Program-made: the position numbers and the translations under genes | Source of the DNA: a virus | Taxonomy: Duplodnaviria; Caudoviricetes | Virus record (IMG/VR): IMGVR_UViG_3300012665_000361 | Coordinates: 1 to 27,672 of that record | Length of the DNA stretch: 27,672 nt | Reading direction: 5' to 3' (one strand) | Notes under the pieces: generated by a model | Database searches by the model: none | What the model was told of the DNA's origin: nothing | What the model saw: only the letters and a program-made list of their open reading frames with translations | In this document: positions 1-5,568 of the stretch, piece by piece | Layout: every line of letters begins with the position of its first letter | How positions within the stretch are numbered: position 1 is the first letter of the stretch

Positions 1-23
1 CCTTCGGGGCGGGGGGCTTTTTT
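1..23 (+). terminator. Intrinsic terminator, 5' arm truncated by the window edge
   Basis: C-TTCG-G tetraloop at 2-7, G-rich 3' arm GGGCGGGGGGC, then T6 (18-23). Resembles the intact terminator at 4411-4444. Confidence 0.7.
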
Positions 24-34
24 CATGCCCTCGC

Positions 35-49
35 GCTCGGATTCCGAGC
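35..49. repeat. Dispersed palindrome copy 1 (GCTCGGATTCCGAGC)
   Basis: 6-bp arms GCTCGG/CCGAGC with an ATT centre; starts 11 nt after the terminator T-tract. Confidence 0.95.
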
Positions 50-87
50 AGACCGCTTGCCCGCGAAAATCGCAAAAATCGCGCCAC

Positions 88-153
88 GTTTGTGTCGGAG
101 AGTTTGTGTTGGAAGGTTTGTGTTGAGGGTTTGTGTCGGGGGTGTGTGTGTCA
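88..153. repeat. Tandem 13-14 bp direct repeats with GTTTGTGTY core (iteron-like)
   Basis: GTTTGTGT at 88, 102, 116 and 129, a degenerate GTGTGTGT at 142, and an isolated copy at 218. Confidence 0.85.
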
Positions 154-279
154 GCCGTCATCGCAATTCGTCACTAATTCAGCCCTCGGCGGGATGTTCT
201 TTTGCTACGCGAAAAAAGTTTGTGTCGGCGAGGACAGCCATCGGCGCTACGCACTGCTCCAGCCACCGGCGCTAGGCGT

Positions 280-308
280 TTGACTCTGCCACCGGAATCG
301 AGTAAAAT
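280..308 (+). promoter_or_regulatory. Sigma70/SigA-type early promoter
   Basis: -35 TTGACT (280-285), 17-nt spacer, -10 TAAAAT (303-308), upstream of the + strand operon. Confidence 0.8.
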
Positions 309-345
309 AGTACCACTGGGGATAACTATGTCCTCATCCACCGGC

Positions 346-360
346 GCTCGGATTCCGAGC
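346..360. repeat. Dispersed palindrome copy 2
   Basis: GCTCGGATTCCGAGC in the predicted 5' leader, 10 nt upstream of RBS GAAAGG (371-376). Confidence 0.95.
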
Positions 361-383
361 ACGGCAACCCGAAAGGTAATCTC

Positions 384-536
384 ATGTATATAACCACGCT
401 AGATATGCTCGCTGTAATGATTGCGCTAGTCGTATCTGTAACGCTAGTCATCACAACGGCTATCGCTAATGCTCGCCTCACCGCATCCCGCGATGAGTGG
501 CGACAGGCTTATTACACACTCAAGGGTCGTGAATAG
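384..536 (+). CDS. Small single-pass membrane protein (50 aa; below ORF-track cutoff)
   Basis: GAAAGG RBS, then MYITTLDMLAVMIALVVSVTLVITTAIANARLTASRDEWRQAYYTLKGRE; stop lies 2 nt before the next ATG. Confidence 0.8.
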   Translation: MYITTLDMLAVMIALVVSVTLVITTAIANARLTASRDEWRQAYYTLKGRE

Positions 537-538
537 CC

Positions 539-2035
539 ATGCCCGACATCATCCAAGTTGAAATCGGCTTCGGATACTTAGGCGTACAGATGTGCGCCTC
601 ATGCTACAAGCCTAATCATGTGTTCGTGGAATCTCACCACAGAAACGAATACTGCCTCAGATGCCACAATGATTACACATTGACCAACCGACAAGGGCTA
701 CCTGCTCGGATTCCGAGCACTGAAACCCACGCTATCTTGGCTGAGGATATTCCACGATGCCAAGCCTGTGAGAATCCAGAACTTCCAACCACAACCCAGT
801 GGCGCTTCACTCAAGCGATGTTAGCGGATTCATCACTCATCACAGTTCACGAGTCTTGCTCTCGCAAGATATGTGACAAGTGCGATATCCGTTATGCCTA
901 CAATGGCAACCGCAACTGGCGTGAACCTCATGCCATATCTAGCAACCTGTTTGCTGGTACAACAGTCATCGAAGGAGAGAACTACTGTGACTCATGCGAA
1001 TCTACTTTCTGGGAAGAAAACGATGACTCGGACTACTTCTCTTGTGACTGCTGTGAGTCGCAGACCCATTACGATAACAGCGGATGGTTTGACGGCACCC
1101 GATACTGTGCAAACTGTATCGAGAACAATGTCTACGACTGTCGAGACTGTGGCGTCACCTGCTGGGATGGTGCAGACCACTATTGTGAGGATGACAATGA
1201 CGATGACGAGTCGCTCATCCATAACTACGCATACCGACCTTCTCCCTTCTTCTTTGGAGAGGGAAAGTATTACTTCGGCTTCGAGTTAGAAGTTGAGTCT
1301 CGTGGTCATGGGCGCTATGACGGCGCACAGATTGCACAGAATACTCTCGGCGGTCATGCCTATCTCAAGGATGACGGCTCTCTATCAGACGGCTTCGAGA
1401 TTGTCACACATCCGCATACCCTAGAGAAGTATCACACTGACTTCAACTGGGAAGTATTGGAGAAGTTACAGTCTCATGGCTATCGGTCATGGAATACCCG
1501 TACATGCGGACTTCATGTCCATGTCTCACGCACTGCCTTCGGCGATGGTGGCGACCCTTGGCGTTACGATATTACGCAAGGTACGCGTTCACAGATTATT
1601 CTCAAGCGCCAGTCTCATGAGTTGCGCTTCATGAAGTTAATCTATGACAATCAACGCCAAGTAGAGCGTATTGCTGGGCGTAGCAATAATAACTATGCAA
1701 CCTTCCAAGATAAGGGCAACCTTGTCCGGAAGGTCAAGGATGGATACCAACTTAGCGGTAGGTATTCGGCTATCAACACCGAGAACGATGCAACTATCGA
1801 GGTGCGTGTGTTCAAGGGTTCACTGCGTAAAGAGCGTGTGCTATCTGCACTAGAGTTCGTTCATGCTGCGGTGGAATATACTCGCGACATCAAGGTGAGT
1901 ACCAAGAACCACGCCTTATCATGGCTCAAGTTCACAGGGTATGTCTCTGCCAATGCAGAACTGTATCCCAATCTAGTAACTATCATGAGCGAATCGTTCG
2001 CAAGTGACGACAACCCTAATGAAACAGACAACTAA
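539..2035 (+). CDS. Putative amidoligase (COOH-NH2 ligase, Amidoligase_2-like) with Cys-rich N-terminal half
   Basis: Motifs FGFELEVE, DDGSL..GFEIVT.P, TCGLHVHVS, RYSAIN and TIEVR.FKGSL; about 8 CxxC pairs in aa 19-205. Confidence 0.85.
   Translation: MPDIIQVEIGFGYLGVQMCASCYKPNHVFVESHHRNEYCLRCHNDYTLTNRQGLPARIPSTETHAILAEDIPRCQACENPELPTTTQWRFTQAMLADSSLITVHESCSRKICDKCDIRYAYNGNRNWREPHAISSNLFAGTTVIEGENYCDSCESTFWEENDDSDYFSCDCCESQTHYDNSGWFDGTRYCANCIENNVYDCRDCGVTCWDGADHYCEDDNDDDESLIHNYAYRPSPFFFGEGKYYFGFELEVESRGHGRYDGAQIAQNTLGGHAYLKDDGSLSDGFEIVTHPHTLEKYHTDFNWEVLEKLQSHGYRSWNTRTCGLHVHVSRTAFGDGGDPWRYDITQGTRSQIILKRQSHELRFMKLIYDNQRQVERIAGRSNNNYATFQDKGNLVRKVKDGYQLSGRYSAINTENDATIEVRVFKGSLRKERVLSALEFVHAAVEYTRDIKVSTKNHALSWLKFTGYVSANAELYPNLVTIMSESFASDDNPNETDN
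703..719. repeat. Dispersed palindrome copy 3 (intragenic, read as A-R-I-P-S)
   Basis: TGCTCGGATTCCGAGCA with 7-bp arms. Confidence 0.95.
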
Positions 2036-2036
2036 G

Positions 2037-2053
2037 TGCTCGGATTCCGAGCA
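2037..2053. repeat. Dispersed palindrome copy 4
   Basis: TGCTCGGATTCCGAGCA, 1 nt after the amidoligase stop and directly followed by RBS GAAGGAG. Confidence 0.95.
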
Positions 2054-2067
2054 GAAGGAGTAAGCCA

Positions 2068-2919
2068 ATGTGTATGTTATGCGTAGTTCCACCCAATGTA
2101 ATTCCGTCTCGTGAGAAGTTAGAGAACTCTGCTCTCAACAATCCACACGGATTCGGGTTTGCTATCGCTATCCCAAGCGAAAAGCGTATCCATGTCGAGC
2201 GTACTATGAACGCCGATACATCTATCAACCGCTTCATCGAGATGCGTGGTAGATATCCAGAAGGCTATGCCACATGGCACGCCCGCTTCGCAACTCATGG
2301 CACTACGACAGTAGATAACTGCCATCCATTCAAGGTAGGTAATGACTCACTCACCTATCTCGCTCACAATGGCATCCTGCCTATTGTAGAGCCTCAAGGA
2401 GATACCCGTAGCGATACTCGTATCTTTGCCGAGGACTTACTACCTGCTATCGGTGGTGTTGCATCACTAGATAACCCACAGGTACAGAATCTTATCGAGG
2501 ACTTTACCACTGGCTCTAAGGTGTGCGTACTTACTGTGCATCCAGATGCTAAGTATCAGTGCTACCTATTCCACGAGGAGAAGGGCTGGCGCGATGACTC
2601 TAATGTGTGGTGGTCTAACGATACCTGCTATCTACCCAAGCCTTACTCGTACAAGTCTGACTACGACAGCAAGTGGTATTCCAAGAAGCCACTCGACTTC
2701 GTAACCAAGCATGACGCATCCTTATTCTATGAGTGCAAGGTCTGTGACCTTATTGTAGATGAGGACCAATTATGGGAGACTAATCTCGGAGATGACTACT
2801 GCCCACAATGCGGATGCTGTTATCAGTGCAACGCTTATATGACTGATGACCTATGCTACAAGGGTAGCAACGCAGATGCTAAATGGTGGTCAAAGACTGA
2901 CGGGGGGTGGGGCTGGTGA
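2068..2919 (+). CDS. Class II (Ntn) glutamine amidotransferase with C-terminal Cys-rich tail
   Basis: N-terminal M-C nucleophile, N.HGFG, HARFATHG, NCHPF, AHNG and SDT motifs; C-terminal CKVC/CPQC/CYQC; AAGGAG RBS. Confidence 0.9.
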   Translation: MCMLCVVPPNVIPSREKLENSALNNPHGFGFAIAIPSEKRIHVERTMNADTSINRFIEMRGRYPEGYATWHARFATHGTTTVDNCHPFKVGNDSLTYLAHNGILPIVEPQGDTRSDTRIFAEDLLPAIGGVASLDNPQVQNLIEDFTTGSKVCVLTVHPDAKYQCYLFHEEKGWRDDSNVWWSNDTCYLPKPYSYKSDYDSKWYSKKPLDFVTKHDASLFYECKVCDLIVDEDQLWETNLGDDYCPQCGCCYQCNAYMTDDLCYKGSNADAKWWSKTDGGWGW

Positions 2920-3107
2920 GTAAGAAGCACAAGCCTGTACCACCTACGCCCTTTTACTACGGCAAGAGGGCAGAACTATTCTTGCACGATGCAGAGATTG
3001 CATTAGCGCAAGGAGATACAACTAAACACGCACAACTCTTGCTCCGAGCCACGGAGTACGAGGAACTAGCGGGGCAACTGCCTCGCGAGGAAGGTACGCA
3101 TGGTTAA
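2916..3107 (+). CDS. Hypothetical helical protein
   Basis: GTGA overlap with the GATase stop gives a likely GTG start at 2916; tight operon packing. Confidence 0.7.
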   Translation: MSKKHKPVPPTPFYYGKRAELFLHDAEIALAQGDTTKHAQLLLRATEYEELAGQLPREEGTHG

Positions 3108-3252
3108 ATATAAAGAAGCAACATGCTCTAAGTGTCTCGGTGAGTTACTGGTGCCGGAATACGATAAGAGTGATGACTTCTACTGTAATTCATGTGCTTG
3201 GTCTAAGGTTGGGTGGTGCTCGGATTCCGAGCACTCCCCAATTAAGGAGTAG
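3100..3252 (+). CDS. Small zinc-ribbon protein (50 aa; below track cutoff)
   Basis: GAGGAAGG upstream; MVKYKEATCSKCLGELLVPEYDKSDDFYCNSCAWSKVGWCSDSEHSPIKE has two CxxC. Confidence 0.75.
   Translation: MVKYKEATCSKCLGELLVPEYDKSDDFYCNSCAWSKVGWCSDSEHSPIKE
3216..3234. repeat. Dispersed palindrome copy 5 (read as C-S-D-S-E-H at the end of the zinc-ribbon gene)
   Basis: GTGCTCGGATTCCGAGCAC with 8-bp arms, 9 nt upstream of the whiB RBS AAGGAG. Confidence 0.95.
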
Positions 3253-3256
3253 GCAT

Positions 3257-3598
3257 ATGAGTCTTAGTAAGGACAATCCAACCTTCTCTACATATGGAGA
3301 CTGCTCTAGTGAACAGTATGACCCTGAGTGGTGGTTTCCTATCGAGAAGGCAGGTCGCGTAAGTTGGTCTCATACATACGAGGCTAACGCTGCTCGCAAT
3401 ATCTGCAAGTCATGTCCATTACTAAAAGAGTGTCTAACTTATGCTCTCCAGTATGACGGACTAACTGGGATATGGGGCGGTACAGATAGACACGAAAGGT
3501 ACAAGATGCAAAATGAACTAGGCATAACTCCAACCCCATGGGAAAAGAGTTATGGAAGCCCTTTATGGGGGGATTACAGCCCTCAATGGGGGAGTTAA
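3257..3598 (+). CDS. whiB: WhiB-family Fe-S transcription factor
   Basis: C..DPEWWFP..ARNICKSCP...ECL.YAL......GIWGGT...ER signature; start moved to ATG 3257 after AAGGAG. Confidence 0.95.
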   Translation: MSLSKDNPTFSTYGDCSSEQYDPEWWFPIEKAGRVSWSHTYEANAARNICKSCPLLKECLTYALQYDGLTGIWGGTDRHERYKMQNELGITPTPWEKSYGSPLWGDYSPQWGS

Positions 3599-3602
3599 AC
3601 AC

Positions 3603-3722
3603 ATGGACAATGATGATTGGGACCACTTCGTAGGAAGTGTATCCGAGCAATTATTGCTCATGTTCTGGACTGCGCTATTTACAGTAGGTGGCGTAGGGTT
3701 TATACTAATGCTCGCACTGTGA
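3603..3722 (+). CDS. Small membrane protein (39 aa)
   Basis: GGGGAG RBS; MDNDDWDHFVGSVSEQLLLMFWTALFTVGGVGFILMLAL. Confidence 0.7.
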   Translation: MDNDDWDHFVGSVSEQLLLMFWTALFTVGGVGFILMLAL

Positions 3723-3723
3723 C

Positions 3724-3740
3724 TGCTCGGATTCCGAGCA
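3724..3740. repeat. Dispersed palindrome copy 6
   Basis: TGCTCGGATTCCGAGCA, 1 nt after a TGA stop and upstream of the next RBS/ATG. Confidence 0.95.
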
Positions 3741-3763
3741 TCACCCGACTAGAAAGAAATAAA

Positions 3764-3958
3764 ATGCCAAAATACAATGTACAAGTACAACTATCAGGCG
3801 AGGATGGCAACGCATTTGCTATCATCGCAAAGGTAAATCGTGCTCTACGCAACGCTGGTGCAACTCCTGAGGAGATGTCTCAGTACCAACAAGAGTCAAT
3901 GAGTGGGGATTATGATAATCTCCTACGCGTGGCTTCTGATTGGGTAGAAGTAGCATGA
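3764..3958 (+). CDS. Conserved small phage hypothetical protein (64 aa)
   Basis: L.GEDGNAFAI...V..AL..AG...SGDYDNLL motif typical of a widespread small phage protein; start moved to ATG 3764. Confidence 0.8.
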   Translation: MPKYNVQVQLSGEDGNAFAIIAKVNRALRNAGATPEEMSQYQQESMSGDYDNLLRVASDWVEVA

Positions 3959-4119
3959 GTAATGAGTTTCCACCTGACGGGTGGATTACTCTTACACGCT
4001 TAGATGATGGTGAACAAGTAGTCTATGGACTATTTGACACTAAAGAACGAGCCGAGTACTTCGGCTCTAAACTAATCAACGCGGTTATACATCCAATGTA
4101 TCCGCCTACATTACACTAA
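3955..4119 (+). CDS. Hypothetical protein (54 aa)
   Basis: ATGA overlap; MSNEFPPDGWITLTRLDDGEQVVYGLFDTKERAEYFGSKLINAVIHPMYPPTLH. Confidence 0.75.
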   Translation: MSNEFPPDGWITLTRLDDGEQVVYGLFDTKERAEYFGSKLINAVIHPMYPPTLH

Positions 4120-4128
4120 GGAAAAGAT

Positions 4129-4266
4129 ATGAGTGAACCACGCTTAGAAGATGACATCGCCATCGGAAAGAATCAGGACTGCGATGAATGTGAAGAATCA
4201 GAGGATGAATGTACCTGTGCTGATTCTGCATATGACACACTAGAGGAGATGTATGACAACTTTTAG
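4129..4266 (+). CDS. Very acidic Cys-containing small protein (45 aa)
   Basis: AAGGA RBS; MSEPRLEDDIAIGKNQDCDECEESEDECTCADSAYDTLEEMYDNF. Confidence 0.7.
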   Translation: MSEPRLEDDIAIGKNQDCDECEESEDECTCADSAYDTLEEMYDNF

Positions 4267-4390
4267 TGTGAGTGTAGAAGTCGAAGACGATATAGACCCA
4301 TTATCTGTGGAGGGCATGATGGACTATATCTTGCTTCGATTAGAGTCGCAGAAAGTGTTACGAGTTACTAACATCGTACGCGACTACTGA
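4253..4390 (+). CDS. Hypothetical protein (45 aa)
   Basis: GAGGAG RBS; MTTFSVSVEVEDDIDPLSVEGMMDYILLRLESQKVLRVTNIVRDY. Confidence 0.7.
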   Translation: MTTFSVSVEVEDDIDPLSVEGMMDYILLRLESQKVLRVTNIVRDY

Positions 4391-4391
4391 C

Positions 4392-4408
4392 TGCTCGGTT
4401 TCCGAGCA
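4392..4408. repeat. Dispersed palindrome copy 7 (variant centre TTT)
   Basis: TGCTCGGTTTCCGAGCA, 1 nt after a TGA stop and 2 nt before the terminator. Confidence 0.9.
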
Positions 4409-4410
4409 CT

Positions 4411-4444
4411 AGCCCCTCATCGCTTCGGCGGTGGGGGGCTTTGT
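4411..4444 (+). terminator. Terminator of the early operon
   Basis: 13-bp stem AGCCCCTCATCGC/GCGGTGGGGGGCT with 2 G-U pairs, cUUCGg loop, then TTGT. Confidence 0.85.
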
Positions 4445-4583
4445 CATGCCTATTTTTTATGCCAACCTTCGCCAGTCTTATGCTGGCACACGCACCCTGT
4501 ACACTGTTCATGCAATCCAATAGCGATGTAAGTTTCTTTAAGGCTATTAGCCACGCCACCTGCGGTACACTTATCGCATATCA

Positions 4584-4946
4584 TTATTTTGTCCCTTGAG
4601 CAACATCAAATGGTGTTTTTTTCTTTTTCTCTTGCGCCCTGCGGTCAGCACGATTTGAACCCGCGGTAGCGGAAGTTTGTGTTGGAGAGACATTGGCGTC
4701 ATTCTGTTCAGGCTGAACAAAGTCGGGACTAAAGATAGCAGCCGACTGAACAAGGTCAATGTACTGGTGGAACAAGTCAATAAAAACATACACTTGGCTG
4801 ATAAGGTTGCCAGACATCACAACGACATCTTGAAGAAGTTTAATATCCTCTTCTGCTAAAACATCAGTCCAGACTTGTGCTTCCATCTTCGTCTGAAAGT
4901 TCTGGTGTGTCTCCAGTACTTCGTCTATCTTCATTATTCTGCTCAT
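4584..4946 (-). CDS. Hypothetical protein
   Basis: GAGGAG RBS before ATG 4946; helical core and basic NRADRRA..KKKK tail; overlaps the sigma factor 3' end. Confidence 0.7.
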   Translation of the reverse strand: MSRIMKIDEVLETHQNFQTKMEAQVWTDVLAEEDIKLLQDVVVMSGNLISQVYVFIDLFHQYIDLVQSAAIFSPDFVQPEQNDANVSPTQTSATAGSNRADRRAQEKKKKTPFDVAQGTK

Positions 4947-5568
4947 TAACCTGCTCCTCTGTATAGTCACGCTCCTTGCGTGGACGTTGCCCACCAAGGT
5001 AATTCAAAAGATTATTTACTGCACGATTGACACGCATACGTGCTGCATCCTCGCTGATGTCAAGTTCTTTAGCGAGGGTCACATTGTCACATCCATCACC
5101 GAATCGTAGATAGATGATAGTCAGTTGCTCATGTGTTAAACGAGCCAAGCCACGCTCTATGTCAGCCATCATGGCAAACCAATTGCCACCCTCAGAGGCG
5201 ACCTTTTTACTATTAGTAAATCCTAAATCGTTCATAGCAGGTGCAACTCTATCTCCACGCAATACTGCAGGAAGCAACGCTTCTACAATCTCGCGGTCAT
5301 AGTAGTAGTTGTCCTCTACCTTGTACCCTACAGCCTGTGCCTTCTGCTTCTGACAGTAGTCTTTGGCTGCGTTACGCAGTGACCTAGCAATCAGTTTGAT
5401 GGACTGCTTACCTTCTAACTGCTCCCATGTCTTAACCTTATTGGGATGCTCCAAGAACCATATCCATAGTTCCTGACGAATATCATCGGCATCACACATG
5501 TGATACTTACGTGAGTATTCGTAGGCAATAGCAGCCACTACACCTGAATAAGTTTCAGTAACTACCAC
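4864..5568 (-). CDS. Phage RNA polymerase sigma factor (sigma70/ECF-like)
   Basis: Region 2 DADDIRQELW...RNAAKDY; region 4 L..LT.EQ..IIYLRF.......LAKELDIS....RMRVNRA. Confidence 0.85.
   Translation of the reverse strand: MVVTETYSGVVAAIAYEYSRKYHMCDADDIRQELWIWFLEHPNKVKTWEQLEGKQSIKLIARSLRNAAKDYCQKQKAQAVGYKVEDNYYYDREIVEALLPAVLRGDRVAPAMNDLGFTNSKKVASEGGNWFAMMADIERGLARLTHEQLTIIYLRFGDGCDNVTLAKELDISEDAARMRVNRAVNNLLNYLGGQRPRKERDYTEEQVNEQNNEDRRSTGDTPELSDEDGSTSLD

Follow-up and report, generated by a model that had tools for sequence, protein, structure and literature searches.

A dispersed palindromic site in the early region of WhiB-carrying podophages and c37, its candidate binding protein

The stretch of DNA analysed here (the window) is the entire virus record IMGVR_UViG_3300012665_000361, which comprises 27,672 nucleotides and is 67% complete according to CheckV. 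Judging by its sequence, it is a fragment of a WhiB-carrying podophage. Its minus strand follows a podovirus-like gene plan, with a sigma-like gene and genes for capsid, adaptor, tail, lysin, exonuclease, helicase and primase. The plus-strand region is short and encodes an amidoligase, a class II glutamine amidotransferase-like protein (GATase), WhiB and several small open reading frames (ORFs). We infer from a host-type promoter and from the gene content that this plus-strand region is expressed early. The host is suggested by whiB, which serves to recognize actinophages among freshwater metagenomes in a study whose relevant passages do not mention repeats of the kind reported here (PMC6802176). 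The early region is punctuated by seven copies of a 15-bp palindromic site (dyad), and comparison with related phages singles out one protein, referred to here as c37 (~205 aa), as the candidate that binds it. The c37 gene is the first on the plus strand, between the terminase gene and the terminator where the window begins.

The dyad array and its counterparts in related phages

A pattern scan of the window for GCTCGG-N3-CCGAGC returned exactly seven matches, each without mismatches; the copies starting at 35, 346, 704, 2038, 3218 and 3725 have the centre ATT and the copy at 4393 has the centre TTT (Table 1). No eighth copy appeared when up to two mismatches were allowed across the 27,672 bases. 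Shuffled versions of the window contained 0.47 dyads on average and three at most, and none of 100 shuffles reached seven. The initial annotation, made from the letters of the window, had described palindromes with invariant arms and a remaining sequence free of copies, which is borne out by seven copies found compared to 0.47 expected, and it had correctly noted the base A directly 3' of all seven. Including their flanks, the sites fit the pattern Y-[6]-WWW-[6]-R, with S one position further out.

Several details of the arrangement described at the outset also hold. Terminator-like hairpins adjoin the two outer copies, and Shine-Dalgarno (SD)-like words lie 3' of the copies at 346, 2038, 3218 and 3725, in agreement with four copies upstream of ribosome-binding sites. 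Two copies are translated in different frames, as ARIPS in the amidoligase and as CSDSE in a 50-aa Cys-rich ORF, and the proposal that selection acts on the nucleic acid, as a cis-acting site, rather than on the protein is supported. Other details apply in part. Three copies start 1 nt after a stop codon if the outer T of the 17-mer is counted, but the distance is 2 nt for the 15-bp core. All copies share the orientation of the centre inside the window, but both orientations occur in relatives (ATT 27 : AAT 11 in the GTTAGG type, TAA 51 : TTA 31 in the GTACGA type). The absence of a stop codon in any plus-strand frame is a trait of the window spelling only, since the GTTAGG spelling includes TAG and TAA.

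Relatives were gathered by a search with the GATase, which gave 95 entries, 80 of which were kept. A differently spelled 15-bp dyad of their own, in 3–11 copies each, is present in 44 of these 80 loci, while 36 are without one. The arm spellings in relatives are GTTCGG, GTTAGG, GTACGG, GTACGA, GGTCGG, GTCTGA, GTAGGA and GGTAGG. Across 45 dyad-bearing sequences, 332 perfect copies fall within early regions (245 kb), compared to 0 in the 282 kb outside, and in all five complete genomes the 7–11 copies lie in one cluster of 4.8–5.7 kb. The exact 17-mer of the window was found in no other viral contig. Its 15-mer was found in 54 loci, nearly all of them with a single chance copy, the exception being the contig L135 discussed below; neither another GCTCGG array nor another c37 turned up among 117 loci from 21 of 64 parts of the metagenome collection.

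In phages whose GATase is 81–87% identical to that of the window, the sites are orthologous: their flanks align and their arms are altered in place. The GTTAGG phages gained an additional site inside the GATase gene, at a position where the protein tolerated the change. On the GATase tree the spellings are scattered, and four dyad-free loci are nested among dyad-bearing ones. In nested dyad-free loci L039 (1-720) and L036 (3400-4050), the first genes upstream of the amidoligase are apparently on the opposite strand, and another gene apparently occupies the c37 position. A spelling with a 4-nt spacer, GGTAGG-N4-CCTACC, was observed in L015 (at 1017, 2207 and 3183), a locus in which c37 is not found and which was excluded from the pairing and folding tests.

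Co-variation of c37 with the spelling of the sites

Clustering of all ORFs placed c37 in 32 of the 44 loci with a dyad and in none of the 36 that lack one. The other 12 loci with a dyad all reach less than 2.5 kb upstream of the GATase gene, i.e. they are cut short, and one of them has a partial copy. When a c37 profile was searched against 22 of these 36 records, including six that are at least 90% complete, it gave no match. On the c37 tree (31 rows), the seven spellings require six changes, which is the minimum, compared to a mean of 18.3 and a minimum of 15 for shuffled spellings; the truncated c37 of L025 was excluded from the trees. The trees of 23 other genes, including those between the sites, need 1–7 excess changes. 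WhiB and the sigma-like protein are unlikely binders, with 5 and 3 changes in excess on the respective trees, and both genes occur in dyad-free relatives. The evidence from the c37 tree is strong but, because of long branches, not clean.

A c37 that may stand for the window's own was found by motif scan in L135, which is identical to window positions 1–63 at 62 of 63 bases. Its c37 (203 aa, E 4e-51) is flanked by two GCTCGG sites, lies behind a promoter match (TTGACT-17-CATAAT) and forms a separate branch on the tree. The c37 proteins of L135 and L005, which have different spellings, are 32% identical in the N-domain and 77% identical in the C-domain; those of L005 and L016, which share a spelling, are 86% identical in the N-domain and 57% in the C-domain. 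Since the N-domain and C-domain trees each give seven changes for eight spellings, the minimum, the case for the N-domain as the reader of the site rests on these natural chimera pairs.

In one helix, T103-I104-Q105 does not vary among the 11 GTACGA proteins, and it recurs in all six (five distinct) proteins from contigs found by the motif only. Q105 accompanies arms ending in GA and Q104 accompanies arms ending in CGG; glutamine is a textbook reader of adenine. As the rows are related, we regard this correspondence between residue and base as a lead. Two divergent c37 proteins were also considered. For P0145 no locus was found; P0081 is encoded on one contig, which ends 140 bp after the gene and has a single GTCTGA-type dyad upstream of a promoter match. 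A tblastn search with c37 against cultured phages gave no convincing match.

The c37 family, which has 126 representatives at 50% identity, matches no Pfam or PHROG family. The models are all-helical, with a mean predicted local distance difference test score (pLDDT) of 82 for the full-length protein and 94.7 for the N-domain. A fold search of the PDB and BFVD yielded no clear match (VIA, Z 6.0, was the best for the full-length model; N-domain, Z 6.3), and Foldseek returned nothing at E ≤ 0.001. The best viral row in both fold searches is A0A6G6XMX5 (243 aa; probability 0.97 and 0.89), and the named ESM Atlas neighbours, DUF3102 and phage repressor c (0.78–0.79), are leads only. A homodimer is predicted for c37 with a score of 0.83, compared to 0.35 for the best control; agreement of contacts between runs is at least 91% and pLDDT is at least 83. 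The mark for the dimer score is passed by 20 of 30 solved pairs and by 1 of 23 single chains. The interface consists of residues 12–71 and 143–197, plus residue 97, and the motif-tracking residues 101–108 are not named there. The dimer model supports a possible two-headed reader for the dyad.

Operator function and alternative explanations

A strict promoter pattern gave 22 matches in 20 of 46 sequences, and a site starts between +25 and +35 from the predicted start in 19 of the 22. Three related loci, L050, L052 and L053, have their first site on the upstream side of the promoter match. A site in the c37 leader, together with a site in the leader of the next operon, fits an autoregulated shut-off by roadblock. 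We consider it probable that the seven palindromes are operators for a c37 dimer, which would block RNA polymerase and turn down the early genes, including that of c37. A multi-site operator or roadblock, or protein-binding sites on the early DNA, had been among the roles offered initially; these now appear to be the best reading, with c37 available as the candidate binder.

The proposed mechanism starts from sites that are confined to the early region, occur at matching positions in relatives and are respelled in place. Among the genes tested, c37 is the only one that their spelling follows, and the sites come and go with this gene. c37 is predicted to dimerize via residues 12–71 and 143–197, which would leave residues 72–135 free, including the helix that follows the inner bases of the arms. 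Host polymerase would make c37 first, from its own sigma-70-type promoter, and the dimer would then load 25–35 bp downstream of both early starts and along the operon, forming a roadblock. The spellings would represent specificity groups, such that the c37 of a resident phage would also act on, and silence, incoming relatives that share its spelling. A second role, that of an mRNA stem, was likely acquired by the copy before whiB.

SOS-box-like dyads upstream of c37 or of the first early promoter were found in 9 of 23 dyad-bearing loci and in 0 of 18 dyad-free loci, among loci that reach the terminase start. They are located some 200–500 bp upstream of the c37 gene, and most GTACGA-type phages are without them. 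By sequence, they match the consensus given for the actinobacterial (Streptomyces) LexA box, tCGAAC-N4-GNNCGa (PMC9380542); the corresponding stretch lies outside the window. These boxes are hints of host-stress control, the sampled loci being related to each other. Dyads of the form CGAAC-N4-GTTCG between terminase and c37 were recorded at L008:2563-2577, L005:3943, L009:3373, L011:2888, L016:3576, L019:3638, L022:3840, L031:2161, L032:4108, L035:2835 and L037:656. Further SOS-box-like dyads, in the same interval or upstream of the gene for gp132 of mycobacteriophage Ryadel (see below), are at L522:9667, 9739 and 9791 and at L233:31600 and 31649.

Several observations weigh against operators read by c37. 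Two genes other than that of c37 have trees with only one excess change, namely the Cys-rich ORF, which itself contains a site, and the helicase (20 rows). The c37 tree has open forks in addition to its long branches and does not resolve GTACGA as one clade. The link between the window and L135 spans 63 bases only, and the link between residue and base, drawn from related rows, may reflect just one or two events. As c37 falls in no Pfam or PHROG family and its fold has no clear counterpart, DNA binding is argued from genomic covariation only. Most sites are far from promoters, a distance from which Cresawn et al., in the passages concerned, argued against initiation control by a similar repeat in Cluster O mycobacteriophages (PMC4351075). 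No tyrosine or serine recombinase (PF00589, PF00239) was found in any of the five complete genomes, so a classical purpose in lysogeny is missing; among the annotated ORFs of the window or of G002, a complete relative, there is no partition gene, ParA not having been searched as a family. At the RNA level, the third outer position (±3) pairs above chance in 253 distinct contexts (82 compared to 65, 3 of 1000), the whiB-proximal site is part of a longer sense-strand stem in 20 of 29 contexts, and SD-like words lie 3' of 157 of 333 sites compared to a background of 24%, which a role in RNA would also explain.

Alternatively, c37 could bind the duplex for a purpose other than repression, either anchoring, coating or protecting the first-entering end of the genome somewhat in the manner of ParB and parS, or activating or antiterminating transcription. 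We consider this unlikely. The same covariation and dimer evidence applies to it, many sites are within genes or beside terminators, and a function other than initiation was preferred for the Cluster O repeats in the relevant passages of Cresawn et al. (PMC4351075). However, the placement at +25 to +35 and the site in the c37 leader suit autoregulation, and a structural task offers no obvious reason for eight or more spellings. Both protein and sites are absent from 36 of 80 relatives. Residues 34–126 of the c37 model show a weak match to a ParB domain (5k5d_B, Z 4.2, root mean square deviation 3.8, 88 aligned residues, rank 32), but this Z is within the background for helical proteins.

It is less likely still that the element acts generally as RNA, with a 6-bp stem and a 3-nt loop on the mRNA through which c37 would control translation or processing of the next gene. 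All seven window copies fold as hairpins, and the bias in centre orientation and the SD-like words noted above would agree with such a role. The stem before whiB has a predicted energy of -16.8 kcal/mol, compared to -11.7 kcal/mol for shuffled flanks and -13.4 kcal/mol for the opposite strand, and it is kept with differing sequences and G.U pairs directly ahead of the whiB SD; the stem before c37 is extended in 10 of 28 contexts. However, the remaining seven site classes gain at most 1.1 kcal/mol over shuffled flanks. In the 253 contexts, the first outer position (±1) is not paired above chance (146 compared to 146 in shuffled contexts), nor is the second (±2; 74 compared to 95), and mismatches on the sense strand are C.A in 82 cases and G.U in 21, which fits half-sites read in duplex DNA. 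Only two of nine one-mismatch copies are G.U-compatible. The first site in L050, L052 and L053 also counts against RNA, since it lies upstream of the promoter match and would not be transcribed from it. Thus, of the RNA-processing hairpins originally suggested, the copy before whiB is retained as one with a likely RNA role, and a role in RNA at the sites more widely is possible.

A host regulator, the phage WhiB or the sigma-like protein could bind the sites while c37 merely travels along with them. The WhiB and sigma-like genes are in or beside the region, and the spelling could follow the host; nevertheless, we regard this as very improbable. The excess changes on the WhiB and sigma-like trees and the presence of both genes in dyad-free relatives argue against these two. 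As for a host regulator, a search of 185,579 prokaryote genomes for one exact 17-mer spelling gave only 42 hits, none of them in an array or with a second copy within 3 kb, and the Cluster O site is reported to be absent from M. smegmatis and M. tuberculosis (Cresawn et al., PMC4351075, in the passage on host genomes). A lone GTACGA-type 17-mer on L560, a contig of a Candidatus Planktophila bin, has no match to c37 or to early genes within 3 kb and is likely a chance occurrence.

Recombination junctions for the shuffling of gene cassettes, also proposed initially, are largely refuted. In their favour are a 198-bp indel whose two ends fall close to sites, at distances of 1 and 13 nt (L050 compared to L046 and L053), and two similar cases described in Cluster O (PMC4351075). 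However, of 492 indel ends only 29 (6%) are no more than 20 nt away from a site, compared to 8.6% for random positions (12 of 114 for pairs of the same spelling), so variable genes do not begin and end at the sites in the manner of integrons or PeSL. No tyrosine or serine recombinase was found in the five complete genomes, and the DNA contigs of four runs include no site-to-site joint among those listed. No RNA data set was listed as containing the sequence, which carries no information on its expression.

The features of the early region are collected in Table 1. The amidoligase and GATase-like proteins (window 539-2919), which have Cys-rich extensions, form a pair whose nearest cultured matches are in Cluster S mycobacteriophages, at ~31% identity; the right 15 kb of the Cluster S phage Marvin, which has this pair, contains no repeated dyad. 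Repeated TTTGTGT(T/C)GG words are present just inside both ends of the early region (window 89-145, 219-226 and 4676-4685), and they occur in dyad-free relatives too.

Table 1. Features of the early region of the window and its borders.
Feature	Position	Strand	Basis or remark
Terminator-like hairpin and T-run, end of c37 gene	1..24	+	Overlap with L135, which places c37 immediately to the left of position 1
Dyad site, separated from the terminator by 10 nt	35..49	.	Pattern scan
Promoter match P2, sigma-70 type, TTGACT-17-TAAAAT	280..308	+	Consensus match only
Dyad site in the leader of the 50-aa ORF, upstream of its SD and at ~+32 relative to the predicted start of P2	346..360	.	
50-aa hydrophobic ORF, no family	384..536	+	Homologues in 62/81 loci
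Amidoligase_2 protein, Cys-rich N-terminus	539..2035	+	PF12224, E 2e-5
Dyad site within the amidoligase gene, read ARIPS	704..718	.	
Dyad site, 3' of the amidoligase stop and 5' of the GATase SD	2038..2052	.	Orthologous in relatives, arms altered in place
Class II glutamine amidotransferase-like protein (GATase)	2068..2919	+	PF13230, E 8.5e-5, below cut-off
GATase-internal position with a full dyad in GTTAGG-type relatives	2691..2705	.	Window matches 9/15, not a site
66-aa ORF, no family	2907..3107	+	
50-aa Cys-rich ORF, dyad in its 3' end (CSDSE)	3100..3252	+	
Dyad site before whiB	3218..3232	.	
Predicted extended RNA stem enclosing the 3218 dyad, directly upstream of the whiB SD	3208..3242	+	-24 kcal/mol, z -4.65
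WhiB-family regulator	3257..3598	+	PF02467, E 1e-14
39-aa membrane-like ORF	3603..3722	+	
Dyad site, 3' of a stop and 5' of an SD	3725..3739	.	
64-aa phrog_1933 protein, family without assigned function	3764..3958	+	E 2e-23
Three small ORFs (3955-4119, 4129-4266, 4253-4390), no family	3955..4390	+	
Last dyad site, centre TTT, ahead of the terminator	4393..4407	.	
Terminator-like hairpin closing the early operon	4412..4445	+	
Phage sigma-like gene, last of the converging long operon	4864..5568	-	Rejected as binder

Relation to known phage systems

The initial annotation called the cis-element undescribed, which is too strong, as it missed the 17-bp dyad of Cluster O mycobacteriophages, different in one base per arm. 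In the passages on this repeat, Cresawn et al. (2015, PMC4351075) describe more than 30 copies of TGTTCGG-N3-CCGAACA in phages such as Corndog and Ryadel, leave its function unassigned, predict a dimeric binder, doubt a role in initiation control and report that lysogens were not found. Both systems have invariant 7-bp arms, a 3-nt A/T-rich spacer, inter- and intragenic copies and no integrase. The Cluster O arm TGTTCGG differs by one base from (T/C)GCTCGG of the window and is identical to that of L005, L010-L012 and L016. However, the Cluster O copies extend over a 70-kb siphovirus genome in one spelling, whereas the relatives of the window have 7–11 copies within ~5 kb and eight or more spellings.

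A candidate binder of the Cluster O repeats is Ryadel gp132 (gp122 of Corndog in GenBank), a lone 237-aa gene at the end of the genome that none of the 34 matching records lacks. A promoter-like sequence of its own and two SOS-box-like dyads precede it. Its Atlas neighbours include clusters bearing a helix-turn-helix (HTH; 0.88–0.89). An hhalign comparison of c37 and gp132 gave E 0.19–0.52, which is not significant, from a gp132 alignment of only five rows; a 237-aa Ryadel protein is a weak row in the c37 Foldseek search (rank 8, E 0.52), and the c37 profile found no homologue among the Ryadel proteins. As homology to c37 is not significant, gp132 is proposed as an analogy and a candidate only. 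The coordinates and strand of the gene called gp122 in the relevant part of PMC4351075 differ from those of gp122 in GenBank. Annotated gene 131 of Ryadel (L233:30872-31606) is a low-complexity, repeat-derived translation across dyads and is possibly not a real gene.

The immunity repressor of Cluster A phages (L5 gp71) and its stoperators, in which site motif and repressor diverge together (Mavrich and Hatfull 2019, PMC6550527), offer a further parallel. In both cases, many copies of a short site are found in and between genes, a phage protein co-varies with them, and specificity groups result or, for c37, would result. In Cluster A, as described in the passages on stoperators, up to ~30 asymmetric 13-mers are oriented with transcription, and the protein that binds them in these temperate phages is an HTH repressor. 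In contrast, the sites described here are 15-bp dyads in the early operon only, with both centre orientations, no HTH family was detected for c37, and the search for an integrase gave none. In its mode of action the system would resemble a repressor whose operators are dispersed; it is not a member of the stoperator family. The tectivirus GIL01 is controlled by host LexA together with a small phage protein (PMC4551915, in the part concerned). The SOS-box-like dyads that 9 of 23 dyad-bearing loci have ahead of their first early promoter resemble this arrangement, but they are some 200–500 bp from the c37 gene and are missing in most GTACGA-type phages.

Repeated hairpin-capable elements are also present in the early regions of other podoviruses, as the hairpin promoters of the N4 virion polymerase and the early RNase III sites of T7. 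Unlike these, the arms reported here are fixed in sequence within a genome and differ between genomes, neither of which a structure-only signal needs. In the complete relative G002, neither a 1969-aa protein nor its neighbours match an RNA polymerase family (the fold was not searched). This 1969-aa protein, encoded between the portal and scaffold genes (L238:4988-10897), has no informative family match and is probably an ejected internal virion protein. A literature search, mostly without subscription papers and supplements, found no named binder of the Cluster O repeat and no such arrays in freshwater actinophages.

Actinophages have been known since 2015 to contain dispersed dyad repeats, to which neither a binder nor a function had been assigned. 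A candidate binder can now be named from its distribution, its tree, the chimeras and one helix, with at least eight natural protein-site pairs; c37 is well supported in this role by comparison, from which we infer its binding and function. A more far-reaching proposal, which we advance tentatively and hold to be doubtful, is that c37 is a DNA-reading dimer of new fold that serves as an integrase-free immunity switch by silencing the early operon, tied in many lineages to host LexA via the upstream SOS boxes, that it would provide latency in apparently lytic freshwater podophages with eight or more immunity groups, and that gp132 is an analogous binder of the 17-bp repeats in Cluster O. If c37 does bind the sites as an operator protein, an unclassified family of DNA-binding proteins with natural orthogonal specificities would be gained, integrase-free phages would be capable of kin-specific gene silencing, and the Cluster O repeats would have a concrete candidate in a culturable system.

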